From: a bacterium
GTDB taxonomy: Bacteria > Krumholzibacteriota > Krumholzibacteriia > LZORAL124-64-63
Direction of reading: 5' to 3'
Assembly: GCA_030654305.1 (NCBI GenBank)
Contig: JAURXS010000052.1
Span: forward strand, 1 to 43,973
DNA: 43,973 nt
Shown: in pieces, positions 3,436-43,973 of the stretch
Layout: every line of letters begins with the position of its first letter
Numbering within the stretch: the first letter of the stretch is position 1
Notes under the pieces: model-generated
Databases searched by the model: none
The model's input: only the letters and a program-made list of their open reading frames with translations
Told to the model about the DNA's origin: nothing
Translations under genes and position numbers: made by a program

Positions 3436-4333
3436 GAAGCGATTCCTGCCGCGGGGCGTCTACACCGCCCTGGTGACGCCCTTCCGCGACGGCGAGTTGG
3501 ACAAGCCGGCCTGGGAGCGCCTGGTGGCGCGGCAGGTCGAGGCCGGGGTGGCTGGCCTGGTGCCGGTCGGCTGCACGGGAGAGGCGGCGGCCCTCGATCG
3601 CGCCGAACGCGAGTGGCTCGTGCGCGCCTGCGTGTCGGCGGCGCGAGGCCGCTGCGCCGTGGTCGCCGGCGCCGGCTCCAACGTCACACGGACCACGATC
3701 GCCCAGACCCGCGACGCGGCCGCCTGGGGCGCCGACGCGGCCATGCTCATCTCGCCCTACTACAACAAGCCGCAGCAGCACGGGCTGATCGCCCACTACG
3801 GCGCCGTGGCGCGCGAGGTGGACCTGCCCCTGGTCCTCTACAACGTGCCCGGCCGCACGGCGGTCAACATCCTGCCCGCGACCGTCCGCGCGCTCGCGGC
3901 GGAGCCCAACATCGTGGCGGTGAAGGAGGCCAGCGGCAACCTGGAGCAGATCGCCGAGGTCTGCGGCATCGCCGACCTGCAGGTCTTCTCCGGCGACGAC
4001 GGCCTGAACCTGGACGTGTACGCCCTCGGCGGCGCGGGCACCGTGTCGGTCGTCAGCAACCTGCTGCCGCGCTCGCTGGTGCGCACCTGGGACGCCTGGA
4101 ACTCCGGCGAGGCGCCGCGCGCCCGCTCACTCGCCGAGGCCGTGCGCCCGATCATCGAAGCCTGCTTCCGGGAGACCAACCCCGTGCCGGTCAAGGAACT
4201 GCTGTCCCTGATGGGGCTCTGCACCCACGACCTGCGGCTACCGCTGGTCCCGGCGCTGCCGGAGAACCAGGCCTGGCTGCGGCAGGTCCACGCGGGGCCG
4301 CTCGGCGCGCTCCTGGACGGGGAGGGGACATGA
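3422..4333 (+). CDS. dapA: 4-hydroxy-tetrahydrodipicolinate synthase
   Basis: 303 aa with GVYTALVTPF, GCTGEAAAL, YNVPGRT and AVKEASGN (active-site Lys). An alternative ATG lies at 3428. Confidence 0.92.
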   Translation: MGMSEKRFLPRGVYTALVTPFRDGELDKPAWERLVARQVEAGVAGLVPVGCTGEAAALDRAEREWLVRACVSAARGRCAVVAGAGSNVTRTTIAQTRDAAAWGADAAMLISPYYNKPQQHGLIAHYGAVAREVDLPLVLYNVPGRTAVNILPATVRALAAEPNIVAVKEASGNLEQIAEVCGIADLQVFSGDDGLNLDVYALGGAGTVSVVSNLLPRSLVRTWDAWNSGEAPRARSLAEAVRPIIEACFRETNPVPVKELLSLMGLCTHDLRLPLVPALPENQAWLRQVHAGPLGALLDGEGT

Positions 4334-5079
4334 TCGACGTCAGCGTCCACGGAGCCGAGGGGCGCATGGGCCGCCTGGTCACCGAGCTGATCGAGAGCAC
4401 CGAAGGGTTCGCCCTGGCCGCCCTGGTGACCGAGGTCGGGCACGAGCGGCCGGTCGGCGCCTTCCACCCGCGCCTGCCGCTGACCCCCCAGGACCGGCTC
4501 GCCGAGGTCCACCCCCGCGGCGGCGTGATCGTCGACTTCTCGCTGGCGCCGGCGCTCGGCGGCCTGCTCGACGGCGCGGCGGCGACCGCGGCCCCCCTGG
4601 TGATCGGGACGACGGGCCACGACGAGGACCAGCTGCGGCGCCTGCGCGCCTACGCGCAGACCCACGCGGTGGTGCTCTCCAGCAACTTCAGCGTCGGGAT
4701 CCCGACCCTGCGACTGCTGCTGGAGAAGCTGGCCGAGGTGCTGCCGGAAGGCTTCATGCCGGCGCAGGTCGAGACGCACCACCGCCACAAGCAGGACCTG
4801 CCCAGCGGCACGGCGCGCGCGCTGGCCCGCACCTGGGAGGACCGTCGCGGCGCCGGCACCGTGCCCACCAGCAGCCTGCGCATCGGCGGCGTGACCGGCG
4901 AGCACACCTGGGTCTTCAGCGACGACGAGGAGACCCTCGTCCTGACGCACCGGGCCCACTCGCGCCGGGCGTTCCTGCGCGGCCTCGTGCCCGCGGTGCG
5001 CTACGCCGCGCAGGCGGGGCCGGGGCTGGTCACGATGGAGGACGTGCTGGGCGCCCCGAGGCGAGGCCCGATTGCCTGA
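4330..5079 (+). CDS. dapB: 4-hydroxy-tetrahydrodipicolinate reductase
   Basis: MIDVSVHGAEGRMGR..., ETHHRHKQDLPSGTA (the DapB E-x-HH-x-x-K-x-D-x-PSGTA signature). The ATG at 4330 overlaps the dapA stop (ATGA). The 5' part of ORF-track entry 3613..5079 is out-of-gene artefact. Confidence 0.9.
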   Translation: MIDVSVHGAEGRMGRLVTELIESTEGFALAALVTEVGHERPVGAFHPRLPLTPQDRLAEVHPRGGVIVDFSLAPALGGLLDGAAATAAPLVIGTTGHDEDQLRRLRAYAQTHAVVLSSNFSVGIPTLRLLLEKLAEVLPEGFMPAQVETHHRHKQDLPSGTARALARTWEDRRGAGTVPTSSLRIGGVTGEHTWVFSDDEETLVLTHRAHSRRAFLRGLVPAVRYAAQAGPGLVTMEDVLGAPRRGPIA

Positions 5080-5105
5080 ACGAGGTTTGGCGGCATGAAG
5101 AAGTC

Positions 5106-5127
5106 GGGACCCCTTGGAGGGGGTCCC
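5106..5127. terminator. GC-rich hairpin between the convergent genes dapB and rpsT (possible bidirectional terminator)
   Basis: GGGACCCC-ttggag-GGGGTCCC gives an 8-bp perfect stem. The flanks are only weakly T-rich (CTTCTTCAT on the minus strand). Confidence 0.4.
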
Positions 5128-5163
5128 GTCTGGAAGCGGAGCGGCAAGGCGCCGGGCGGATCC

Positions 5164-5415
5164 CTACTTTGCGTAGAGGGCGGCCATGCGGGCCTTGAGG
5201 CGGGAAGCGCGCTGCTTCGGGATGACGCCCTTGCGGGCCTGGACATCCAGCATGCTGTAGATGGCGCTGAGGGCTTCGGGCGTCTTCTCGGCCACCGGGG
5301 CCGCGGCGCGGAAGTTCTTCAGCTCGGTGCGCATCTCGCTGCGGTTCTGGCGGTTCACCAGCCGCTGGCGGGCGCTCGTCTTCATGCGCTTCTTACAACT
5401 CTTGTGATGCGGCAA
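5164..5415 (-). CDS. rpsT: 30S ribosomal protein S20
   Basis: 83 aa, basic, with KKRMKTSARQRLVNRQNRSEMRT...KGVIPKQRASRLKARM typical of S20. TTG start at 5415 is preceded by GAAGGAGG 7 nt upstream. Confidence 0.93.
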   Translation of the reverse strand: MPHHKSCKKRMKTSARQRLVNRQNRSEMRTELKNFRAAAPVAEKTPEALSAIYSMLDVQARKGVIPKQRASRLKARMAALYAK

Positions 5416-5444
5416 CGTCGGACCTCCTTCGGGACAACCGACAG

Positions 5445-5473
5445 AAATTAGCAGGGACCCTCGCCGATGTCAA
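5445..5473 (-). promoter_or_regulatory. sigma70-type promoter for rpsT (TTGACA-17-TAATTT)
   Basis: Minus strand reads cTTGACAtcggcgagggtccctgcTAATTTctg. The -35 is at 5473..5468 and the -10 at 5450..5445, about 30 nt upstream of the rpsT start. The -35 is built from uvrC codons 1-3 on the other strand. Confidence 0.6.
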
Positions 5474-7326
5474 GTCGCGACCCGGAAAACGACGACCGCG
5501 CTGTCCTGCGGGACCGCCTGGCGGGACTGCCGGATTCCCCGGGCGTCTACCTCCACAAGGACGCCCAGGGCAAGGTGCTGTACGTCGGCAAGGCGGTGCG
5601 CCTCTCGGCCCGGGTGCGGTCCTATTTCCAGGACACCGACAAGGACCCCAAGACCGCCCAGCTGGTGCGCCGGATCGCCGATGTCGACTACATCGTCACT
5701 CGCGGCGAGACCGAGGCCCTGGTCCTCGAGGACCAGCTCATCAAGGAGTACCGCCCCCGCTACAACATCCGCCTGAAGGACGACAAGCGGTACCCCTACC
5801 TGCGCATCACCCTGCAGGAGCCCTTCCCCCGGGTCGAGGTGGTGCGCCGCCTCGCGGACGACGGCTCGCGCTTCTTCGGCCCCTACACCAGCGTGCGGGC
5901 CATGCGCGAGACGATCCAGCACGCCCTGCGGATCTTCCAGGTGCGCACCTGCGAGCTGGACCTGCCGCGTCAGACCGTGCCGCGCCCCTGCCTGGACTGG
6001 CAGATCGGCCGCTGCAGCGCGCCCTGCGTCGGCTACGACGATGCGGCCGCCTACCGGCGCAAGGTCGCGGCCCTGGTCCGGTTCCTGGAAGGGGAGGACG
6101 CCTCCCTGGTCGCGGAGCTGAAGGCCGAGATGGCCGACCACGCCGCCGCTCGCCGCTACGAGGAGGCCGCCCGCGTCCGCGACCGGCTGCGGGTGCTGGA
6201 GACCACGCTGGGGGCGCTCAGCCCCATCCACGGCCTGAGCGGCGACCTCGACGCCTGCGCCGTGGCCCGCGACGGCGCGCGGGCCTGCGGCATCGTGCTG
6301 CGGATCCGCCGGGGCCGGGTGATGACCAGCCACGAGTTCCACCTCGAGGACCGGCTCGAGAGCGGGACGCCCGCATTCCTGGAGCAGCTGCTGCGCGAGT
6401 ACTACCCCCGCGCCGGCGACCTGCCCCCGCTGGTGCTGCTCGACCACGACCTCGCCGACCGCGAGGCCTGGACCGCGCGCCTGACCGACCTGCGCGGCCG
6501 GCCGGTGAAGCTGGCCCGACCGGTGCGCGGCCCCAAGCACGAGGCCGTGGCCATGGCCGCGGCCAACGCCCTGCACAAGCTGGAAGCGCGCCGGTTGAAG
6601 GACCTGGCCGCGCCCCGCCGCGCCGCGCCGGAACGGAGCGCGGCGCTGCAGGCGGCCCTCGACCTGCGCGCCCTGCCCGAGACGATCGAGTGCTTCGACA
6701 TCTCCAATTTCCAGGGGCGCGAGACCGTCGCCTCCCTCGTCTACTTCCGCGACGGCCACCCGCTGAAATCCCGCTACCGTCGCTTCCGCATCCGGACCGT
6801 CGACGGCATCGACGATTTCGCGTCGATGCGCGAGGTCCTGCGCCGCTACTACGCGCGACTGCTCGAGAAGGGACTGCCGCCGGCCGACCTGGTCCTGATC
6901 GACGGCGGCGCCGGCCAGGTGAGCGCCGCCCGCGCCGCGCTCACGGAGCTGGGATTGCACGCCGTGGAGCTGATCGGCCTGGCCAAGCGCGAGGAGCTCA
7001 TCGTGCGCGAGCGCGGCCTGCCGCCCCTGAAGCTGCCCCGCACCAGCGGGGCGCTGCAGCTGCTGCAGCAGGTCCGCGACGAGGCGCACCGCTTCGCCAT
7101 CACCTACCACCGCCTGCTGCGCGAGCAGCGCACCACCGGTTCGGTGCTGGACGCCGTGCCGGGCATCGGCCAGGTGAAGAAACTGTCCCTGCTGCACCAC
7201 TTCGCGTCGGTGGACGACATCCGGCGCGCGTCGGCGCAGCAGCTCTCCGAGGTGCGCGGGCTCGGCGCCGCGGACGTCGAGCGCCTGCTCTCCTTCTTCG
7301 CCGCCGAGCGCCGGGAGGGCGCGTGA
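5467..7326 (+). CDS. uvrC: excinuclease ABC subunit C
   Basis: 619 aa with the GIY-YIG N-terminus (PGVYLHKDAQGKVLYVGKA...RVRSYF), a UVR domain (RRYEEAARVRDRL), an endonuclease domain and C-terminal HhH (VPGIGQVKK). Confidence 0.95.
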   Translation: MSSRDPENDDRAVLRDRLAGLPDSPGVYLHKDAQGKVLYVGKAVRLSARVRSYFQDTDKDPKTAQLVRRIADVDYIVTRGETEALVLEDQLIKEYRPRYNIRLKDDKRYPYLRITLQEPFPRVEVVRRLADDGSRFFGPYTSVRAMRETIQHALRIFQVRTCELDLPRQTVPRPCLDWQIGRCSAPCVGYDDAAAYRRKVAALVRFLEGEDASLVAELKAEMADHAAARRYEEAARVRDRLRVLETTLGALSPIHGLSGDLDACAVARDGARACGIVLRIRRGRVMTSHEFHLEDRLESGTPAFLEQLLREYYPRAGDLPPLVLLDHDLADREAWTARLTDLRGRPVKLARPVRGPKHEAVAMAAANALHKLEARRLKDLAAPRRAAPERSAALQAALDLRALPETIECFDISNFQGRETVASLVYFRDGHPLKSRYRRFRIRTVDGIDDFASMREVLRRYYARLLEKGLPPADLVLIDGGAGQVSAARAALTELGLHAVELIGLAKREELIVRERGLPPLKLPRTSGALQLLQQVRDEAHRFAITYHRLLREQRTTGSVLDAVPGIGQVKKLSLLHHFASVDDIRRASAQQLSEVRGLGAADVERLLSFFAAERREGA

Positions 7327-8234
7327 GCCGCGCCTGGGACGACGCCCTCGCCGCCTTCCTGGCCCACGCCTCGGCGGAGAAGGGGCTGGCCGCCGGCACG
7401 CTGGAGGCGTACGCCCGCGACCTGCAGTCCTGGCGTGCCTGGGCCTGCGAACACGAGCTGCCGGACCCGGCGCAGGCCGGCACCTCCGCCCTGCGGTCGT
7501 TCCTGCTGGACACCGCCGATCGTCTCGGCCCGCGCTCGCGGGCCCGCCTGGTCTCGACCCTGCGCTCGTTCCACCGCTTCCTGGCCGCGGAGGGGCTCGC
7601 CGCCGGCGACCCCACCCTGCTGATCCTGGCGCCGAAGATCGGGCGCAAGCTCCCGGTCGTCCTGTCCGGGCCCCAGGTCGGGGCGCTGCTGGAAGCGCCG
7701 CCCGCGAACGAGCCCGCCGGCCTGCGCGACCGGGCCGTGCTGGAGATCCTCTACGGCTGCGGCCTGCGCGCCAGCGAGCTGTGCGGGCTCGACGTGACCG
7801 ACCTCGACCGCCGCGACGCCTCGCTGCGCGTGCGGGGCAAGGGCAGCAAGGAACGCCTGGTGCCGGTCGGCCGCCCCGCGCTCGACGCCGTCGCCGCCTG
7901 GCTGACGCGGGGGCGTCCGGAGATGCCCGGCCGCAAGCCCTCGGCGGCCCTGTTCGTCAACGCGCGCGGCGGACGCCTCTCGCGCGTCGCGGTCTGGGGT
8001 CTGGTCAAGCGCTGGGGGACGGCCAGCGGCGCGCCCGAGTCGCTCACGCCCCACGTGCTGCGCCACACCTACGCCACGCACCTGCTGGAGGGCGGCGCCG
8101 ACCTGCGCGTGGTGCAGGAGCTGCTCGGCCACGCCGCCATCACCACCACCGAGATCTACACCCACGTCGACCGGGCCTTCGTGGCCGAGGCCTACCGCAG
8201 CGCCCACCCGCGGGCGCGGCGGCGTCGGCTTTGA
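7323..8234 (+). CDS. xerD: site-specific tyrosine recombinase, XerC/XerD family
   Basis: GTG at 7323 overlaps the uvrC stop (GTGA). The C-terminal catalytic region reads HVLRHTYATHLLEGGADLRVVQELLGHAAITTTEIYTHV, with GLRASEL earlier. XerC versus XerD cannot be decided from sequence alone. Confidence 0.8.
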   Translation: MSRAWDDALAAFLAHASAEKGLAAGTLEAYARDLQSWRAWACEHELPDPAQAGTSALRSFLLDTADRLGPRSRARLVSTLRSFHRFLAAEGLAAGDPTLLILAPKIGRKLPVVLSGPQVGALLEAPPANEPAGLRDRAVLEILYGCGLRASELCGLDVTDLDRRDASLRVRGKGSKERLVPVGRPALDAVAAWLTRGRPEMPGRKPSAALFVNARGGRLSRVAVWGLVKRWGTASGAPESLTPHVLRHTYATHLLEGGADLRVVQELLGHAAITTTEIYTHVDRAFVAEAYRSAHPRARRRRL

Positions 8235-8259
8235 CAGGCACCGCCGCCGATGGTACTGT
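8231..8259 (+). promoter_or_regulatory. putative promoter for trpS (TTGACA-17-TACTGT)
   Basis: The consensus -35 hexamer contains the xerD stop codon (tTGAca). The 17-nt spacer and a 4/6 match at -10 lie about 85 nt upstream of the trpS GTG. Confidence 0.5.
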
Positions 8260-8344
8260 AGCCCCTCGCTCGCCCGCACGCGGGCCGACCGATCCGGCGG
8301 CAGCCGGGTCGCGAATCCGGACCACGCTCCCGAGGAACCCATCC

Positions 8345-9328
8345 GTGACCAAGAAGATCATCCTCAGCGGCAACCGTCCCACCGGGCGCCTGCACTGGGG
8401 CAACTACACCGGCGCGCTGGAGAACTGGATCCGCCTGCAGGACGAATACGACTGCTACTTCATGGTGGCCGACTGGCACGTCCTGACCACGGCCCTGGAC
8501 AAGTCGCACGAGATCCGCGACAACTCCCGCGAGATGATCCTGGACTGGCTCGGCGCCGGGCTCGACCCGGACCGCTCGGTGCTGTTCGTGCAGTCCTCCA
8601 TCAAGGAGCACGCCGAACTGTACCTGGTGGCCTGCATGCTGATCTCCCTGGGCCGGCTGGAGCGCAACCCGACGTTCAAGGAGCAGGTGCGCGACCTCGA
8701 CCTCGCCGGCGAGATCAGCTTCGGCCACCTGGGCTACCCCGTCCTGCAGGCGGCCGACATCCTGGCCTACCGCGCGCACGCCGTGCCCGTGGGGGAGGAC
8801 CAGCTGCCGCACCTCGAGCTGTGCCGCGAGATCGCGCGGCGCTTCAACCACCACTTCGGCGAACTCTTCCCGGAGCCCGAGGGCCTGGTCACGAAGTTCG
8901 GGCGCTTCCCGGGCACCGACGGGCGCCGCATGAGCAAGTCGCTGGGCAACGCGGTGGAGATCGCCGCCCCGCCCGAGGAGATCCGCGCGAAGCTCAAGAC
9001 CGCGTTCACCGACCCGCAGCGCCTGCGCCGCAGCGACCCCGGCAACCCCGACGTCTGCGCCGTCTACACGTGGTACCAGAAGTTCCTGCCCGGCGAGGCG
9101 GACCAGACCGCCGCCGAGTGCCGCAGCGCCGAGCGCGGCTGCGTCGACTGCAAGAAGCGCCTGGCCGACGGCGCGATCGCCTACTTCGAACCCCTGCGCG
9201 AGCGGCGCGCCGGGTACGAGAGCCACCCGAACCGCGTCGCCGAGATCGTGGACGCCGGCTGCGCCCGCGCGCGAGCCGCCGCCTCCGAGACCCTGGCGCG
9301 CGTCCGCGACGCCATGGGCGTCGGGTAG
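8345..9328 (+). CDS. trpS: tryptophan--tRNA ligase
   Basis: Class I synthetase motifs GRLHWGNY (HIGH-like) and KMSKSLGN, plus VADWHVLTT. In-frame GTG at 8345; upstream ORF-track residues are Arg/Pro-rich artefact. Confidence 0.93.
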   Translation: MTKKIILSGNRPTGRLHWGNYTGALENWIRLQDEYDCYFMVADWHVLTTALDKSHEIRDNSREMILDWLGAGLDPDRSVLFVQSSIKEHAELYLVACMLISLGRLERNPTFKEQVRDLDLAGEISFGHLGYPVLQAADILAYRAHAVPVGEDQLPHLELCREIARRFNHHFGELFPEPEGLVTKFGRFPGTDGRRMSKSLGNAVEIAAPPEEIRAKLKTAFTDPQRLRRSDPGNPDVCAVYTWYQKFLPGEADQTAAECRSAERGCVDCKKRLADGAIAYFEPLRERRAGYESHPNRVAEIVDAGCARARAAASETLARVRDAMGVG

Positions 9329-30049: not shown

Positions 30050-30125
30050 GCGGGCTTAGCTCAGTTGGTAGAGCATCAGCTTCCCAAGCTGAGGGTCGCG
30101 GGTCCGAGTCCCGTAGCCCGCTCCA
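30050..30125 (+). tRNA. tRNA-Gly (anticodon CCC), CCA encoded
   Basis: Manual cloverleaf: acceptor GCGGGCT/AGCCCGC, D-arm GCTC-AGTTGGTA-GAGC, anticodon arm TCAGC-TTCCCAA-GCTGA, variable GGGTC, T-arm GCGGG-TCCGAGT-CCCGT, discriminator T, then CCA. T-loop position 55 is C, not the usual T. Confidence 0.88.
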
Positions 30126-35155: not shown

Positions 35156-35232
35156 CGGGCCGTAGCGCAGCCCGGTAGCGCACTTGCATGGGGGGCAAGG
35201 GGTCGGCGGTTCAAATCCGCCCGGCCCGACCA
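35156..35232 (+). tRNA. tRNA-Pro (anticodon GGG), CCA encoded
   Basis: Acceptor CGGGCCG/CGGCCCG, D-arm GCGC-AGCCCGGTA-GCGC, anticodon arm CTTGC-ATGGGGG-GCAAG, T-arm GGCGG-TTCAAAT-CCGCC, discriminator A, then CCA. Confidence 0.9.
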
Positions 35233-38513: not shown

Positions 38514-38591
<78 letters not shown>

Positions 38592-38604: not shown

Positions 38605-38648
38605 AACGGGTCGCCTCAGGGCGGCCCGTTCCTGTTTTATCCTGTTTT
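38605..38648 (+). terminator. strong rho-independent terminator at the convergence point of the plus and minus transcription units
   Basis: AACGGGTCGCC-tcag-GGCGGCCCGTT gives an 11-bp stem with one G-U pair, followed by CCTGTTTTATCCTGTTTTC. Confidence 0.75.
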
Positions 38649-38669: not shown

Positions 38670-39407
38670 CTAGGTCAACCCGATCAGACGCCGCCAGCCG
38701 CGTCGGCCCGGCAGCGGGACCTCGTGCTCCACGCGCCGCACCTCGCCATCCGGCTCCAGCAGCGCGTAGCCCTGCCAGCTCTGGGGCAGCCCGAGGTAAT
38801 GGATCCCGTCGCGCTCGCTCTCGTGCCAGCGGTGGTGGTGCCCGAAGACCCACCAGCGCGGCCGCAGGTGCGCCGCCACGCGCGCCAGGCCCGCCACGCC
38901 GGGCGGGCCCAGGTGGGCGAGCGCGACCTCGCTGTTCACCCCGATGTCCGTGGGGCAGTCGTGGCTGATCACGAGGTCGATGCTGCCGGGAGCGTGGGCC
39001 AGGCAGGCGTCGATGTCCCGCTCGCGGATCTCGCTGCCGCACGGGGTCGACCAGGCGTCCATGTAGCGCGCGCCGCCGACGCACAGGCAGTTCCAGTCGC
39101 CCAGACTCAACCGGGAGCCGCGGGGCAGGTGGGTGACGACGTCCGCGTAGTCGCGCACCAGCCGCTCGAACGACGCGAAGTCCTCGTGGTTGCCCTCGAT
39201 GAAGGCCGTGGGGTGCGCGAACCGGAACCCGCCGCGTCGGAAGTGGCGGTGCAGTTCGGCGCCGAACAGGCCGAAGTCCCCCAGCACCAGCACCCGCTCG
39301 ACGGGACGGCCCCGCGATTCCTGGGCGTGGGCCGCCTGCGCGTCGACGACTCCGTAGTGCGCGTGGACGTCGCTGAGCAGCAGGATCGAGCCGTCACCGG
39401 TCGACAT
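38670..39407 (-). CDS. calcineurin-like metallophosphoesterase
   Basis: 245 aa carrying the full MPP motif set: LLSDVHAH (DxH), LGDFG (GD), EGNHED (GNHE), ISHDCP, and FGHHHRWH (GHxH). The ATG at 39407 lies 5 nt after the upstream stop (TGAgcgcgATG). This is only the 3' third of ORF-track entry 38670..41345. Confidence 0.8.
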
Positions 39408-39412
39408 CGCGC

Positions 39413-41494
39413 TCAGCCCCCCCGGAACTCGTGGTCCAGCATGGTCTGCAGCGCCTTGATGTCGGCGAACACGGACTTCAGCGTCCGGCGCGTCGCCGGG
39501 TCGAGCGCGTCCGGCTCGAGCCGGTTGTCGGGTTCGAGACGATCGAGGATCCGCCGGGACTGGTGCTGCAGCCGCAGGTCCATCAGGAAGCGGTACGACT
39601 CGGCGAGTTCGGCGGCGGTCTCGGCGCGCAGCTTGCCCGCCGACGCGAGGGCGGCCAACCGGTCCGCCGTGGCGGTGGCGGCGACCCCGTGCTGCAGGGC
39701 GCGCAGCCGCACGTAATCGACGATCTGCGCCATGACGCCCTTGACGTCGAAGGTGGCGCGGTCCGCCTCGCCCTTCTCCAGCGCGAAGCCGCCGAACGCG
39801 TTGAGCGGCGGCTCGTACTGCAGCACGCTGCGCGCGAGCAGGTGCAGGAAGCGGGGCTCGCTCGCGATCTCGTCCGCCAGGTCGGCGCGCAGCGCGGCGA
39901 CCAGCCCGTCCTGTCCGAGTCCGTCCTGCCGGAGGGCGCCGCGGAAATCGAAGAAGATCTTCGCCTGCAGCAGGTCCTCGGCCTCCAGGGTGTGGATCCA
40001 GCCCGCGAACGTCCGGCGCCAGCCGGAGAGCGACTGGCAGCAGCGGGGCTCCCCGGACATGATGCCGCCCCGGCAATAGGGGTAGCCCGCCGCATCCAGG
40101 ATCGTGGAGAGCCGCGTCCCCAGGCGCAGGAAATAGTCGCGCGCCGCCGCCTCCGCGCCGGCGTCCAGGTCCGGGTAGATGATGGCGTGGTCCTGGTCCG
40201 CCAGCAGGCTCACCTCGGCGCGACCGAGGCTCCCCATGAGCATGACGTCGAAGTCCGACGGCGGCGGCCCCAGTTCGGCGATCGCCAGTTCGACGCCCTT
40301 GCGCACGGCCGTGTCCGCGTTCTGCGACAGCATGCGGCTGACCTGCAGGGCGTCGGCCCCGTGGCTCATCATCAGGCCGGCCATGGTCGCCAGACGCCGG
40401 TTCGCCGCCGCCAGGTCGTCGCTGCTTCGCGCCGCATGCAGATCGAGCTCGTGCGGCTGCTCCAGGCGGGTGGCCACGGCCATGCAACCGGGCCTGCCCT
40501 GCAGCATCACGCGCGACAGCGACAGCATGACCCGCACGACGCCGCCGCCGCGCGTGACCAGTTCGGCTTCGTAGCGGATGGGTGCGCGGTCCCCGTCGGC
40601 CACCGCCCGCCAGTGCCGGCGCCCGCTCTCCATTTCGGCGGCCGTCGCGCGCACCAGCCGCCCGGCGTCCAGGCGCGCGAACTCCTCGCGGCTGTAACCG
40701 ACCAGCTTCAACATGCTCGCGTTGGCGAAGAGCCCCTCGTCGCCCACGGACATGAAGATCGACTCGCCGGCCGACTCCACCAGCGAGCGGTACTTCTCCT
40801 CGGAGATCTTCAGGGCGGCGGCCGTGAGCAGGCGGCCGCGCTCCGCCTGGAAGCTGGTGCGCAGCAGGAAGACCAGCAGCAGCGTCACCGCGGCGAGGAT
40901 CAGCACGGCCGCCGCCTGCAGGCGCCCGGCCACCGCCGCCACCTCGCGGTCGACGTCGTCGGTGTAGACGCCGGTGCCGATGATCCAGCCCCAGGGTGCG
41001 AAGCCCTTGACGTAGGACAGCTTGGGCACGATGCGCGCGGGGTCGTCCTTCCACTGCCACATGTAGTCGACGTAGCCGGCGCCCTCGCGGCGCACGACGT
41101 CGACCATCGCGACGAAGATCAGCTTGCCGTGCGGGTCGGCGAAGGCGGACAGGTCGCCGCCCTCGAGGTCGGGGCGGTAGGGGTGGACGATCATCCGCGG
41201 CTGGAGGTCGTTGATCCAGAAGTAGTCCTTGCCCTCCTGGCCGTAGTGGAGGCTGCGGACCTGCAGGATGGCGGCGGCCTGGGCCTGCTCGCGCGAGAGG
41301 CGGCCGGCGCGCTCTTCGGCCTCGTAGCGGGCCAGGATGTTCCACGACGATTCGGTCAGCTCTCGGATCATGAGCCGCTTCTGGTCCATCACCGCGCGGC
41401 CCAGGGTGGGCAGGAAGTGGAAGAAGACCACGCCGGAAAAGAGGCCGACGGCCAAGAGGGCGGGCAGGCCCGTGCGCAGCGCAAGACGTTTCAT
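39413..41494 (-). CDS. membrane sensor protein: TM, periplasmic single-Cache domain, TM, PAS-like segment, then DUF294 nucleotidyltransferase plus DUF294_C domain
   Basis: 693 aa. TM1 is aa 8-30. The Cache signature is YFWINDLQPRMIVHPYRPDLEG...PKLSYVKGFAPWGWIIGTGVY (aa 90-177). TM2 is aa 194-214. The PAS-like segment is aa 225-335. The Pol-beta NTase motif is MGSLGRAEVSLLADQDHAIIY (aa 420-440, nt 40175..40237). The long helical C-terminus is typical of DUF294_C. Confidence 0.85.
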   Translation of the reverse strand: MKRLALRTGLPALLAVGLFSGVVFFHFLPTLGRAVMDQKRLMIRELTESSWNILARYEAEERAGRLSREQAQAAAILQVRSLHYGQEGKDYFWINDLQPRMIVHPYRPDLEGGDLSAFADPHGKLIFVAMVDVVRREGAGYVDYMWQWKDDPARIVPKLSYVKGFAPWGWIIGTGVYTDDVDREVAAVAGRLQAAAVLILAAVTLLLVFLLRTSFQAERGRLLTAAALKISEEKYRSLVESAGESIFMSVGDEGLFANASMLKLVGYSREEFARLDAGRLVRATAAEMESGRRHWRAVADGDRAPIRYEAELVTRGGGVVRVMLSLSRVMLQGRPGCMAVATRLEQPHELDLHAARSSDDLAAANRRLATMAGLMMSHGADALQVSRMLSQNADTAVRKGVELAIAELGPPPSDFDVMLMGSLGRAEVSLLADQDHAIIYPDLDAGAEAAARDYFLRLGTRLSTILDAAGYPYCRGGIMSGEPRCCQSLSGWRRTFAGWIHTLEAEDLLQAKIFFDFRGALRQDGLGQDGLVAALRADLADEIASEPRFLHLLARSVLQYEPPLNAFGGFALEKGEADRATFDVKGVMAQIVDYVRLRALQHGVAATATADRLAALASAGKLRAETAAELAESYRFLMDLRLQHQSRRILDRLEPDNRLEPDALDPATRRTLKSVFADIKALQTMLDHEFRGG

Positions 41495-41525
41495 TCTAGA
41501 CGCTTCATTCGAGACGCTTCATCGT
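41484..41525 (-). repeat. three tandem 14-nt units, each containing ATGAARCGTCT (the start of the sensor gene)
   Basis: Minus strand reads CGATGAAGCGTCTC / GAATGAAGCGTCTA / GAATGAAACGTCTT. Plus-strand units are at 41512..41525, 41498..41511 and 41484..41497. Confidence 0.9.
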
Positions 41526-41548
41526 CGTGACCTGCCCTCCGTCTTCAT
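41491..41548 (-). promoter_or_regulatory. relay of three mini-ORFs (MKTEGRSRR*, MKRLE*, MKRLE*) whose TGA stops each overlap the next ATG, ending on the sensor-gene ATG
   Basis: ATGs are at 41548, 41522, 41508 and 41494 (minus strand). The stops at 41521..41519, 41507..41505 and 41493..41491 form ATGA overlaps. The only SD-like element (GGAGGG, 41535..41540) precedes the second ATG. The main ATG has none. Confidence 0.45.
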
Positions 41549-41570
41549 GCCGATGCCCCCGCGCCGGAGC

Positions 41571-42629
41571 CTACAGCAGGAACTGCACGCCCGCCAGCAA
41601 CTGGTTGGGGCTGTCGCCGGTGCTGAATTCCACCCCGTAGCGCAGCTTGTGCTTCAGGCGGTAGTAGTGCAGCCCCGCCGTCAGGTTCGACATCCGGTCG
41701 CCGGAGCCGGGATCGACGACGGAGACCTTGCCCGTCGCCTGCACGCGGTCGCGGCGCAGCCCCGACTCGACGAACCAGGTGCTGCCGTGGAAGTTGAGGT
41801 TGTCCCAGTCGTACCAGCCGGCGTTGAGCGTGCCGAACATCCCGCCCGCGGCGAAGCCGGACTGCAGGTCGACCACGAAGGCCCGGCTGTCGATCGTCCA
41901 GCCGGGATCGGCGGCCGACACGTAGCCGGCGCGGTTGGCCCGTCTCTGGTAGTCGATCCCCGTGCCCAGCAGCAGGTAGGGATCCCCGCCCAGGCGCTCC
42001 TGCCCGTGGAACCAGGCCGTGGGCACGGCGCCGACGGCCGCGTACTCCAGGTGCCCGGTGAAGCGCGGCGCCGCCTCGGGATTCTTCGTGGTCCCGACTT
42101 CGTAGCCGTCGAAGACGCCCGCGCGGTAGGCGAACGACCCGCCGTACGAGCCGTGCAGCATCAGGCCCTGGTCGCGCCAGACGAAGGTGTTGGCCAGCTT
42201 GATCACCTCGGCGTTGTAGTCCAGCCCCAGCAGGCTGCCGGCCGAGGAAGTGTTCTCGAAGGACAGCGGCAGCAGGATCAGCCCCACCTCCAGCCAGTGG
42301 TCCCCGCTCAGGCGCAGGTCGACGAAGATGTCCTGCAGGTCGGTGGACACGCCGCTCACGGCGCCGTTCCCGGCGTTGTCGTTGTCCGTCTCGGCGAAGA
42401 CCTTCACGCCGTCGGCGATCTGGCCGCTGAAGATCAACCGCCCCCGGCGCAGGTACAGGTCGCGGTCGGCCGCGGCGCCCTCCACCGTCACGGCGTGGAA
42501 CTGGCCCAGCAGGCTGAACTGCAGGTTGGCGCCGTCGTCGAAGTCCCAGCGGGGGCCGGCCAGCGCGGGCGCGGCCGCGACCGTCAACACCACCAGCGCC
42601 GCCCGCAGCAGCAAGTCCGTCCTGCTCAT
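41571..42629 (-). CDS. outer-membrane porin, probably of the OprO/OprP (anion-selective) type
   Basis: The ATG at 42629 is preceded by AAGGAGAG. Signal peptide MSRTDLLLRAALVVLTVAAAPALA. Amphipathic beta-strand pattern throughout. YLRRGRLIFSGQI...VKVFAETDN resembles the RRARL..G motif of phosphate-selective porins. Family assignment is by eye. Confidence 0.72.
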   Translation of the reverse strand: MSRTDLLLRAALVVLTVAAAPALAGPRWDFDDGANLQFSLLGQFHAVTVEGAAADRDLYLRRGRLIFSGQIADGVKVFAETDNDNAGNGAVSGVSTDLQDIFVDLRLSGDHWLEVGLILLPLSFENTSSAGSLLGLDYNAEVIKLANTFVWRDQGLMLHGSYGGSFAYRAGVFDGYEVGTTKNPEAAPRFTGHLEYAAVGAVPTAWFHGQERLGGDPYLLLGTGIDYQRRANRAGYVSAADPGWTIDSRAFVVDLQSGFAAGGMFGTLNAGWYDWDNLNFHGSTWFVESGLRRDRVQATGKVSVVDPGSGDRMSNLTAGLHYYRLKHKLRYGVEFSTGDSPNQLLAGVQFLL

Positions 42630-42659
42630 CGCACTCTCCTTGTCGGGATGGTAGGGGAG

Positions 42660-42681
42660 GCGGGCCGGCCGACCGGCCCGC
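42660..42681 (-). other. GC hairpin in the actP-porin intergenic spacer
   Basis: GCGGGCCGG-ccga-CCGGCCCGC gives a 9-bp perfect stem. There is no T-run on the transcribed strand, so it is unlikely to be a full terminator. Confidence 0.35.
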
Positions 42682-42699
42682 TCATTCAAGCCTGACATT

Positions 42700-43973
42700 T
42701 CAAGTCTGGACGGCGACCCGCCGGTTCTTCGTCACCAGCGACACCACGATTAGCGCCAGGAAGCTCAGCGGGATCGAGATGATCCCCGGCTGCCCCAGCG
42801 GGTGCCACGCCTGTTCGGCGGTAAGCCCGTACGGGCCCGCGAACATCTCCGGCCCGGTCAGGATGATCCCGAGCGAGGAGACGATGCCCACGATGATCGA
42901 GGCCACGATGCCCGCCGCGGTGGTCCGCTTCCAGAACAGGAGCATCAGGATGGCCGGCAGGTTGGCCGACGCCGCCACGGCGAAGGCCCAGCCGACCAGG
43001 AAGCTCACGTTGACCCCGCGGAAGACGATGCCCAGCACGATCGCCACGATGCCCACGGCGAAGGCCGCCAGCTTGCCGGCGCGCACCTTCTGACGGTCGG
43101 TCAGCTCCATGCGGCCGAAGCGGTCCATCAGGTCGTGGGCCACCGCGCCCGAGGCGGCCACGATCAGGCCGGCGACGGTGCCCAGCACGGTCGCGAACGC
43201 GATGGCCGAGATGATGGCGAACAGCACGCCGCCGAAGGACATCGCCAGCAGCGGCGCCGACATGTTGTTGTCGGCCGGGTTCACCGTGCCGTTGACCGCC
43301 GCGCCGAGGCCCAGGAACAGGGTCAGGACGTAGAAGAAACCGATCGAGGCGATGGCCACGATCGTCGACTTGCGGGCGCAGGCCGGGCTCGGCACGGTGT
43401 AGTAGCGGATCAGGATGTGCGGCAGCGCCGCGGTCCCGAAGAACAGGGCCATCATCAGCGACACGAAGTTGAGCTTCTCGGTCGTGGTGTGCACCTTGAA
43501 CTTCACGCCCGGCTTCATCTCGTCGGTGCCCGAGACGGTCTTCGGCGAGTAGACCGCGTACTTGGCGCCCTTCTCGTCGGTCACGGCCTGCTTCTGCCAC
43601 TGCTCGACCCGGGTGTCGGGGTGGGTCAGGTGCGCGAGGAAGGCCAGCGGGCCCACCGCGCCGGTGCCGGCGGCGGCTTCCGCGTCGCTCATCCCGCCGA
43701 TCCGCCGCAGGCGCCCGACGGGCTCCAGCACGCCGCCCGCCACGCCGTTGACAACCCCGTCGCTGGTCCACTGCGCACGCCAGAGCGTGCCGTCGGCCTC
43801 GCGCTTCCACCAGGTGGTCGCCCCGTCGCGGACGTACTTCTGCAGGCTGCCGGTCGTGTGCAGCAGCGCGTACCCCTGCTCCTGGAGCTGGCTCTCGGTG
43901 GCCTGCACGGTCATCTCGCCGCCGGGGGCGCCGCCGTCGAGCCCCACGGGCTCGGTGCTCAGGCCGCGCGCGA
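42700..43973 (-). CDS. actP: cation/acetate symporter ActP (SSF family), C-terminal ~424 codons; 5' end outside window
   Basis: FGTAALPHILIRYYTVPSPACARKS matches the ActP signature (GTAGLPHILMRFFTV..AR.ARKS), followed by about 7 TM helices. The frame stays open to the window edge, so the GTG at 43947 in the ORF track is not the real start. Confidence 0.88.
   Translation of the reverse strand, partial: ARGLSTEPVGLDGGAPGGEMTVQATESQLQEQGYALLHTTGSLQKYVRDGATTWWKREADGTLWRAQWTSDGVVNGVAGGVLEPVGRLRRIGGMSDAEAAAGTGAVGPLAFLAHLTHPDTRVEQWQKQAVTDEKGAKYAVYSPKTVSGTDEMKPGVKFKVHTTTEKLNFVSLMMALFFGTAALPHILIRYYTVPSPACARKSTIVAIASIGFFYVLTLFLGLGAAVNGTVNPADNNMSAPLLAMSFGGVLFAIISAIAFATVLGTVAGLIVAASGAVAHDLMDRFGRMELTDRQKVRAGKLAAFAVGIVAIVLGIVFRGVNVSFLVGWAFAVAASANLPAILMLLFWKRTTAAGIVASIIVGIVSSLGIILTGPEMFAGPYGLTAEQAWHPLGQPGIISIPLSFLALIVVSLVTKNRRVAVQT

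Follow-up and report, generated by a model that had tools for sequence, protein, structure and literature searches.

What does a nucleotidyltransferase (NTase) of the DUF294 family do when it is anchored in the membrane behind an extracytoplasmic sensor, with a metallophosphoesterase (MPE) and a sodium:solute symporter encoded beside it? The question is raised by one end of a complete 43,973-nt metagenome-assembled contig of a Krumholzibacteriota bacterium (JAURXS010000052.1, assembly GCA_030654305.1), which has a G+C content of ~72% and is referred to below, at its full length, as the window. Its closest relatives carry the labels Krumholzibacteriia or Latescibacterota. DUF294/COG2905 is a widespread bacterial signalling family whose biochemical function is not known; its pseudomonad members belong to an acetate/propionate regulon, and their knock-outs have shown little phenotype. 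The Cache-headed variant found in the window offers handles that the cytoplasmic forms lack, namely a specific ligand prediction, a clean two-gene unit of predicted writer and eraser, and natural swapping of the partner.

The locus is a real, non-random association: the architecture of its Cache-DUF294 protein is common in two phyla and is a variant within the uncharacterised DUF294/COG2905 family. With somewhat less than even confidence we read the pair of this protein and the MPE as a carboxylate-gated receptor NTase and its dedicated eraser, which together would modify a protein reversibly by nucleotidylylation and so act as a switch in the uptake of monocarboxylates. Four minus-strand genes make up the locus, encoding an actP-type symporter, a porin, the 693-aa NTase and the 245-aa MPE. 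They are co-directional and separated by spacers of 70, 76 and 5 nt, at the coordinates given in a first-pass annotation made from the sequence alone. Profile searches and a neighbourhood census, two checks by which the reading in that annotation could have been refuted, both came out in its favour. The features discussed below are as follows.

39413-41494, minus strand: 693-aa receptor nucleotidyltransferase (NTase) (Pfam, NCBIfam, 116 homologues)
40931-41389, minus strand: sCache_2 sensor domain with predicted C2/C3-carboxylate pocket (PDB phmmer, PscD contacts)
39425-40396, minus strand: DUF294 + DUF294_C module, predicted GlnE/DrrA-type fold (AF2 model, Foldseek)
38670-39407, minus strand: 245-aa cytoplasmic metallophosphoesterase (MPE), predicted eraser (Metallophos, five motifs)
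42700 to beyond 43973, minus strand: actP/mctC-type sodium:solute symporter, 3' part, frame open at the contig end
41571-42629, minus strand: outer-membrane porin with signal peptide (Porin_O_P, start MSRTDLLL)
41484-41522, minus strand: 14-nt tandem repeat, 2.8 copies (Tandem Repeats Finder)
38605-38630, no strand assigned: GC-rich hairpin, likely bidirectional terminator (11 bp stem, 8 GC pairs)
38514-38590, plus strand: tRNA-Pro(CGG), convergent with the operon, marking the 3' boundary of the module (ARAGORN, Rfam)

A putative Cache receptor with a predicted nucleotidyltransferase output

From its N-terminus the 693-aa protein is composed of TM1 (~9-31), sCache_2 (36-188), TM2 (~192-213), PAS (~231-341), DUF294 (367-504) and DUF294_C (547-690); the two transmembrane (TM) helices are hydrophobic segments read directly from the sequence. 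Pfam matches over these residues are strong for sCache_2 (PF17200; 1.5e-38, 132.6 bits), DUF294 (PF03445; 3.8e-37, 127.7 bits against a cut-off of 21) and DUF294_C (PF10335; 8.8e-38, 129.8 bits against 22.5). The PAS region falls under the Pfam cut-off (PAS_9, 23 bits against 27) and passes that of NCBIfam TIGR00229 (34.2 against 22.9 bits). Together with Metallophos, SSF and, just above its cut-off, Porin_O_P in the neighbouring genes, the profile searches support every domain call of the first-pass annotation. Neither Pfam nor NCBIfam returned a cNMP_binding or CBS match in the protein, the input of which consists of sCache_2 and PAS. The same architecture is present in 116 full-length homologues of 55-100% identity.

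The closest structures to the Cache domain, in phmmer searches of the PDB, are those of Adeh_3718 (4k08, 1.2e-40) and PscD (5g4y/5g4z, 1.2e-37). PscD binds glycolate, acetate, propionate and pyruvate. In its pocket Y90, H103, Y143 and K156 form hydrogen bonds, W92 and W145 sandwich the ligand and F126 closes the pocket, and all seven contact residues are common to McpP and Adeh_3718 (PMC5062169). The residues Y90, W92, H103, F126, Y143, W145 and K156 correspond in the window protein to Y91, W93, H104, F127, Y144, W146 and K158, an identity of 7/7, and these are invariant across the 116 homologues except for W93F in eight. Because all seven PscD contacts are conserved, the prediction of a C2/C3 carboxylate as the ligand is a specific one, and it would also fit the neighbouring transporter. 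The window protein resembles PscD (P. syringae), McpP (P. putida) and Adeh_3718 in having sCache_2 between two TM helices (E 1e-37 to 1e-40), but its output is a nucleotidyltransferase, whereas theirs is the signalling domain of a methyl-accepting chemotaxis protein. The sensor also matches the NCBIfam MctS model (9e-23), at a score under the curated cut-off; MctS/MctR regulates a monocarboxylate transporter.

The Pol-beta NTase motif called in the first-pass annotation has the exact signature G-x11-D-x-D (G421...D433-Q-D435) and is invariant in the 116 homologues. An AlphaFold2 (AF2) model of residues 352-693 has a pLDDT of 92.5. When this NTase half was compared with the PDB by Foldseek, just four matches reached E<=1e-3, and all are protein adenylyltransferase folds: one is the AMPylation domain of DrrA (6yx5_B, 2.9e-9, TMq 0.64), and the other three come from GlnE, namely its N-terminal domain (1v4a, 1e-8) and two chains of its C-terminal (adenylylation) domain (3k7d, ~2.5e-7). 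TM-scores to DrrA and to both GlnE halves are ~0.6-0.64 over ~340 columns. Much weaker, at E>0.05 and TM<0.32, are the matches to RNA uridylyltransferases, to aminoglycoside NTases and to HalB, an oligonucleotide synthase. A protein is preferred as the acceptor chiefly because the significant fold matches are confined to protein adenylyltransferases. Profile matches to GlnE are under the cut-offs of both Pfam (PF03710, 20.7 bits against 24) and NCBIfam (NF008292, 17.4 against 487 bits), and a Pfam match to GlnD_UR_UTase is weak and below threshold. The Pol-beta signature and a helical substrate-binding domain are common to GlnE, the DrrA/SidM AMPylation domain, GlnD and the window protein; the latter lacks ACT and HD domains as well as a second NTase repeat, and its predicted eraser is a separate MPE. 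GlnD combines its NTase with an HD hydrolase, and SidD, a metal-dependent enzyme of phosphatase fold, undoes the AMPylation carried out by DrrA. The writer-plus-hydrolase logic of GlnD and of DrrA/SidD parallels the one suggested here. A part in anti-phage defence, as an NTase with a nuclease, was considered and set aside: PADLOC returned nothing for the NTase and a weak generic match for the MPE.

The metallophosphoesterase partner

The NTase and MPE genes meet at TGAgcgcgATG, which leaves the 5-nt spacer. The 245-aa MPE matches Pfam Metallophos (1.2e-8, 36 bits against a cut-off of 21.5). All five metal-ligand motifs read from the window in the first-pass annotation (D13xH15, G43D44, G72N73H74E75, H149 and G189H190xH192) are conserved in family alignments, and the family has motifs of its own, GGARYMD, STPxGxE and GLPQSW. 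This dedicated family is small. Clustered at 90% identity it numbers 213 groups, as counted among candidates that have short words in common with the query, and out of 1.84 billion representatives just 26 matched at E<=1e-30, with a wider cloud of 757 relatives at E<=1e-10.

The best PDB match of the family profile is the RNA lariat debranching enzyme Dbr1 (7.5e-11, residues 5-208, identity 15-18%). Dbr1 is also the top Foldseek match (5e-10, TMq 0.66) of an AF2 model of the MPE (pLDDT 87.5), and further matches are to phosphodiesterases that include Rv0805 (Foldseek rank 13), GpdQ and LpxH. The MPE and Dbr1 have the calcineurin-like fold in common, but the MPE is bacterial, paired with an NTase, shorter (245 against ~350 or more aa) and distinguished by its own family motifs. 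Since its alignment spans roughly residues 8-250 of Dbr1 chains that are ~350 residues long, the C-terminal part of Dbr1 being missing, it is best called Dbr1-like and not Dbr1. Dbr1 cleaves X-O-P and leaves a nucleotide with a 5'-phosphate; DEDDh exonucleases likewise leave a 5'-phosphorylated nucleotide.

Two candidate fusions of DUF294 and MPE in a single open reading frame (ORF; P0366 and P0373) carry garbled, out-of-frame sequence where DUF294_C joins the MPE and towards their termini, and are therefore treated as indel artefacts and not as gene fusions. At one locus (L005, ~8000-9000), from a long-read metagenome-assembled genome (MAG), the MPE gene is broken into two ORFs, and this too looks like an indel artefact.

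Conservation of the pair

To place the locus among its relatives, one genome per GTDB species was scanned with an alignment of the NTase half, which gave 80 loci; hidden Markov models built from recurring neighbours were then searched against all six-frame ORFs. Forty-one loci have an NTase identity of at least 43%, and the other 39 represent the remaining DUF294 subfamilies. The MPE gene lies directly downstream of the NTase gene in 41/41 loci, at gaps of -40 to +6 nt with many ATGA overlaps, and the first-pass proposal of a recurrent adjacency is fully borne out. No match to an RNase_T partner model was obtained within the flanks examined at any of these 41 loci.

Linkage to actP, which had also been expected to recur, does so in a form different from that of the window. 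An SSF symporter adjoins the NTase-MPE pair in 34 of the 41 loci, as DUF485/yjcH does in 34, and three of the seven loci that lack the symporter have <500 nt of upstream flank. The symporter gene is, however, mostly divergent (26 of the 34 loci, against eight that are co-directional), and the four-gene co-directional layout is seen in 5/41. Three loci with precomputed gene calls agree with the census. A divergent 842-aa Cache-PAS-CBS-DUF294 protein (P0120) is encoded in a co-directional yjcH-actP-NTase-MPE array. The conserved unit is the NTase-MPE pair beside yjcH-actP; the four-gene layout and the porin are lineage-specific.

The module had been put forward as an undescribed one. In the literature searched, no description was found of a Cache-headed DUF294 protein or of an MPE partner; the architecture itself, however, is not rare, with >230 clusters at 90% identity in two phyla, and its members bear automatic database names such as 'cache domain-containing' or 'DUF294 nucleotidyltransferase-like'.

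Known DUF294 systems and the swapping of partners

Known relatives in pseudomonads are cytoplasmic. In P. putida, PP_0354 (cNMP, two CBS domains and NTase) and PP_0353 (RNase_T) form an operon that MxtR/ErdR, a two-component system for acetate, controls directly; no function is known for either (PMC9927547; bioRxiv 10.64898/2026.09.07.749794). The P. aeruginosa homologues adjoin yjcH and actP (PMC9927547), and the PA3232-PA3235 cluster is co-regulated and ~16-fold induced on propionate (PMC9765439); the first-pass annotation had named this region correctly. Mutant fitness patterns on lactate and D-alanine coincide for a COG2905/RNase T gene and an adjacent DUF4212+SSF symporter in both S. amazonensis and P. 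stutzeri (bioRxiv 10.1101/072470, section 42). PP_0354 and PA3233 have DUF294 and DUF294_C in common with the window protein (28-36% identity, tblastn 1e-28 to 1e-50). These systems and that of the window have an obligatory neighbouring phosphodiesterase gene and are linked to yjcH-actP and to acetate/propionate/pyruvate metabolism. They differ in the input, which is a membrane-anchored TM-sCache_2-TM-PAS here and a cytoplasmic cNMP-binding region with two CBS domains in PP_0354 and PA3233, and in the partner, which is a calcineurin-like MPE here and RNase_T in PP_0353 and PA3232.

The same contrast holds across the 39 other DUF294 loci, in which the architectures cNMP-CBS-DUF294, CBS-DUF294 and RNase_T-CBS-DUF294 are found. 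The order given as typical in the first-pass annotation, cNMP-CBS-DUF294 followed by a gene for an RNase_T (DEDDh) exonuclease, is seen among them. Seventeen of these loci encode RNase_T and NTase as one polypeptide, 10 have RNase_T in an adjacent gene and one has it nearby, while 11 lack it; the DEDDh motifs of these partners are intact, and the MPE family of the window occurs in 0/39. The proposal that an extracytoplasmic Cache domain has replaced the usual input, and a phosphoesterase the DEDDh enzyme, agrees with the lack of cNMP or CBS matches in the window protein and of RNase_T partner matches within the flanks examined at the 41 loci. Intermediates with both Cache and CBS exist (P0120 and a Bacteroidota family), and the membrane-anchored Cache forms are paired with an MPE at every locus examined.

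The Bacteroidota family has the architecture sCache_2-PAS-CBS-DUF294 (~824-916 aa, >120 clusters). Its carboxylate-pocket residues are the same in 120 homologues, with S or A at the position equivalent to PscD M129. A 229-249-aa Metallophos gene lies directly upstream of the NTase gene in 5/5 loci (L044:4733-7960; L085-L088, ~4190-7750). The upstream gene of L044 was considered as an orthologue of the window MPE and rejected: BLAST detected no similarity between the two, and hhalign gave 82% probability over 70 N-terminal columns only. With similarity confined to motifs at the profile level, the Bacteroidota MPE belongs to a different subfamily. The Bacteroidota proteins thus resemble that of the window in the Cache pocket, the NTase module and an adjacent MPE of ~230-250 aa, but they keep the CBS pair, their MPE is of another subfamily and encoded upstream, and they have no conserved linkage to actP.

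With RNase_T, the window MPE and the Bacteroidota MPE, the NTase module keeps a phosphodiesterase partner in three unrelated or distantly related forms. The suggestion that writer and eraser form a functional pair is strengthened by the RNase_T fusions with intact DEDDh motifs in 17/39 loci, and by the Bacteroidota MPE in the opposite gene order. The swapping among these three (RNase_T, fused or adjacent, the Dbr1-like MPE of the window, and the second MPE subfamily) also defines the job of the partner, which would be to cleave an X-O-P-5'-nucleoside bond.

Two groups of loci illustrate the variety of contexts. In many marine Alphaproteobacteria (Puniceispirillales-type MAGs; L046-L062, L066, L069), RNase_T is fused N-terminally to CBS-DUF294-DUF294_C in proteins of ~705 aa, the genes for which often stand beside those for a GlcD-like FAD-linked oxidase, an MFS transporter and SBP_bac_3, another C2/C3-acid context. 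CBS-DUF294 proteins of ~480-510 aa are encoded in Actinomycetota MAGs (L075, L076, L079, L080, L082) and in an Acidobacteriota MAG (L078); at these six loci neither an RNase_T nor an MPE gene was found within the flanks examined, and a zinc alcohol dehydrogenase gene is a recurrent neighbour in L075, L076, L079 and L080.

A model for the pair and its alternatives

A model can be proposed for how the two proteins may act together. The periplasmic sCache_2 domain would bind short monocarboxylates (acetate, glycolate, propionate or pyruvate), and the signal would pass through TM2 and the cytoplasmic PAS domain to a GlnE/DrrA-type Pol-beta NTase formed by DUF294 and DUF294_C. The NTase would then move an NMP from an NTP to a hydroxyl, for which a protein is the most likely carrier. 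The translationally coupled MPE, as a putative binuclear metallophosphodiesterase, would hydrolyse the X-O-P bond, free 5'-NMP and reset the switch. In this way the pair could determine how far a regulator of YjcH-ActP is nucleotidylylated, so that uptake is matched to the external supply of carboxylate; the linkage to YjcH-ActP suggests that the process under control is monocarboxylate uptake. An analogy is GlnD, which controls AmtB via PII/GlnK. The domain architecture, the conserved pocket, the catalytic motifs, the fold similarity and the strict pairing and context of the genes are results of the analysis; the ligand, the NTase and eraser activities, the choice of a protein over RNA or a nucleotide as acceptor, and the identity of the target are all predictions of the model.

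Several considerations weigh against it. No biochemical activity is known for any DUF294 protein. The TM-scores to DrrA and GlnE are moderate (~0.6) and are partly to be expected of any GlnE-clan NTase. The known substrates of the partner families, whether RNase_T/Orn-like, Dbr1-like or Rv0805-like, are nucleic acids or nucleotides, and protein de-nucleotidylylation is not among them. Apart from yjcH and actP, the neighbouring genes include no conserved candidate for the target. The Bacteroidota pair is not actP-linked, as SSF is found in 1/5 loci and there >3 kb away, so that something other than the symporter could be the target. Deletion of PP_0354 or PP_0353 gave mild phenotypes only (PMC9927547).

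Because the partner families are classically enzymes of nucleic acids and nucleotides, two alternatives in which the product is not a modified protein keep real weight, although we regard each as unlikely. The NTase might mark RNA at a 3'-OH or 2'-OH, for instance symporter or acs mRNA, a tRNA or a small RNA, and the partner nuclease or MPE might remove the mark, so that carboxylate controls RNA stability or translation. RNase_T and Dbr1 are both RNA enzymes, and Dbr1 is the best match of the MPE in sequence and fold, yet the 245-aa MPE is without the C-terminal part of Dbr1. On the NTase side, terminal uridylyltransferases and Cid1 are matched at E>0.05 with TM ~0.2, against 1e-7 to 1e-9 for the protein AMPylators; moreover, no RNA-binding domain is present and no Rfam RNA element lies in the locus. 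Alternatively, at a similarly low probability, the NTase might respond to external carboxylate by making a nucleotide messenger, linear or 2'-5'-linked, which the MPE or RNase_T would degrade in the manner of cyclase/phosphodiesterase pairs. Enzymes that degrade nucleotide signals are indeed known both among Orn-type DEDDh proteins and among class-III MPE phosphodiesterases such as Rv0805, and a Cache-TM-output layout is typical of cyclases. The fold of the NTase half speaks against a messenger synthase, however, since CD-NTase, OAS and cGAS are absent from the top 50 Foldseek matches and HalB is reached at E ~0.13 and TM ~0.24; nor did PADLOC return anything for the NTase, and the surrounding genes include no conserved effector or receptor.

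Still less probable is that the NTase domain is a pseudo-enzyme with a ligand-binding or scaffolding role, or that the adjacent MPE serves some housekeeping function unrelated to it. Such a view can draw on the wider cloud of 757 MPE relatives at E<=1e-10, but it has to account for the conservation of G-x11-D-x-D and of all MPE metal ligands, and for an NTase-MPE adjacency of 41/41 with overlapping stop and start codons. The MPE of another subfamily beside the Bacteroidota proteins and the RNase_T fusions argue, in addition, for an enzymatic partner that is required.

Protein nucleotidylylation is thus the reading that we prefer. A more far-reaching claim, which we regard as less likely than not, is that these proteins may represent a new class of transmembrane transducers, or 'receptor nucleotidyltransferases', in which a C2/C3 carboxylate bound by the Cache domain leads to AMPylation or UMPylation of a cytoplasmic protein and the MPE reverses it. 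If the fold-based prediction is true, nucleotidylylation would join the known outputs of transmembrane receptors, and a post-translational tuning of short-chain-fatty-acid uptake would be explained. A receptor NTase would likewise provide a function for the orphan family DUF294/COG2905 and a form of symporter control analogous to GlnD-PII-AmtB. Such a system would matter for the part that uncultured Krumholzibacteriota and Bacteroidota play in carbon cycling, and for the way in which pathogens handle acetate.

Symporter, porin and the NTase start region

The symporter gene is truncated in the window. The fragment matches Pfam SSF (3.4e-33), and its best NCBIfam models are the monocarboxylate transporter MctC (1e-77, 261.9 bits) and ActP (3e-58, 197.6 bits); since the contig ends within the gene, neither score reaches its equivalog cut-off. 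Relatives encode full-length orthologues together with DUF485. An insertion of ~140 residues (about 43552-43971, minus strand), rich in W, K and T, lies outside the SSF profile coverage; the symporter orthologues linked to the module are ~620-640 aa long, compared with ~530-550 positions in the ActP and MctC family models.

The first-pass annotation had extended the module by an OprO/P-like anion porin, so that uptake would be served across both membranes. A porin gene is present in the five closest relatives (L004-L008, NTase identity >=84%), where its product has 352-353 aa, but it is absent from the rest of the 41 loci, and the notion of uptake across both membranes is therefore lineage-specific. 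The gene is a lineage-specific insert between the actP and NTase genes. The match to Porin_O_P (1.2e-5, 25.2 bits against a cut-off of 20.9) covers just profile positions 23-165 of 370, and the best curated NCBIfam match is to ExtI (5.5e-13, 48.5 bits, well under the cut-off of 150), the porin of a selenite/tellurite-reduction operon. By these matches the porin may be either OprO/P-like or ExtI-like.

The 76-nt spacer between the porin and NTase genes exceeds the 48 nt of the relatives by two additional copies of a 14-nt repeat that duplicates the start-codon region; L004-L008 have one copy of the repeat and a spacer of 48 nt. The repeat at 41484-41522 reads ATGAAGCGTCTCGA, next ATGAAGCGTCTAGA, next ATGAAACGTCTTGC. 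Triplication of the start region creates two upstream ORFs of five codons (MKRLE and stop), the TGA stops of which overlap the following ATG, and the real start is at 41494. The triplication could be a slippage polymorphism that lowers translation of the NTase, or it could be an assembly artefact.

The 3' boundary of the module

The four genes had been thought to share one terminator. The sole terminator-like hairpin, at 38605-38630, does lie past the MPE stop codon, between it and the convergent tRNA-Pro gene, and terminator-like matches are absent from the three intergenic spacers of the four-gene block. The T-run of the hairpin, however, is on the plus-strand (tRNA) side, and the tail on the operon strand is merely TTCCTTCGTC; the hairpin is thus at best a bidirectional terminator. 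A promoter scan yielded no sigma-70-like sites and is uninformative for the host phylum. An Rfam scan of the window returned three tRNAs only, with no riboswitch or leader in the spacers. The three tRNA genes are all on the plus strand, namely Pro-CGG at 38514-38590, Pro-GGG at 35156-35232 and Gly-CCC at 30050-30125.

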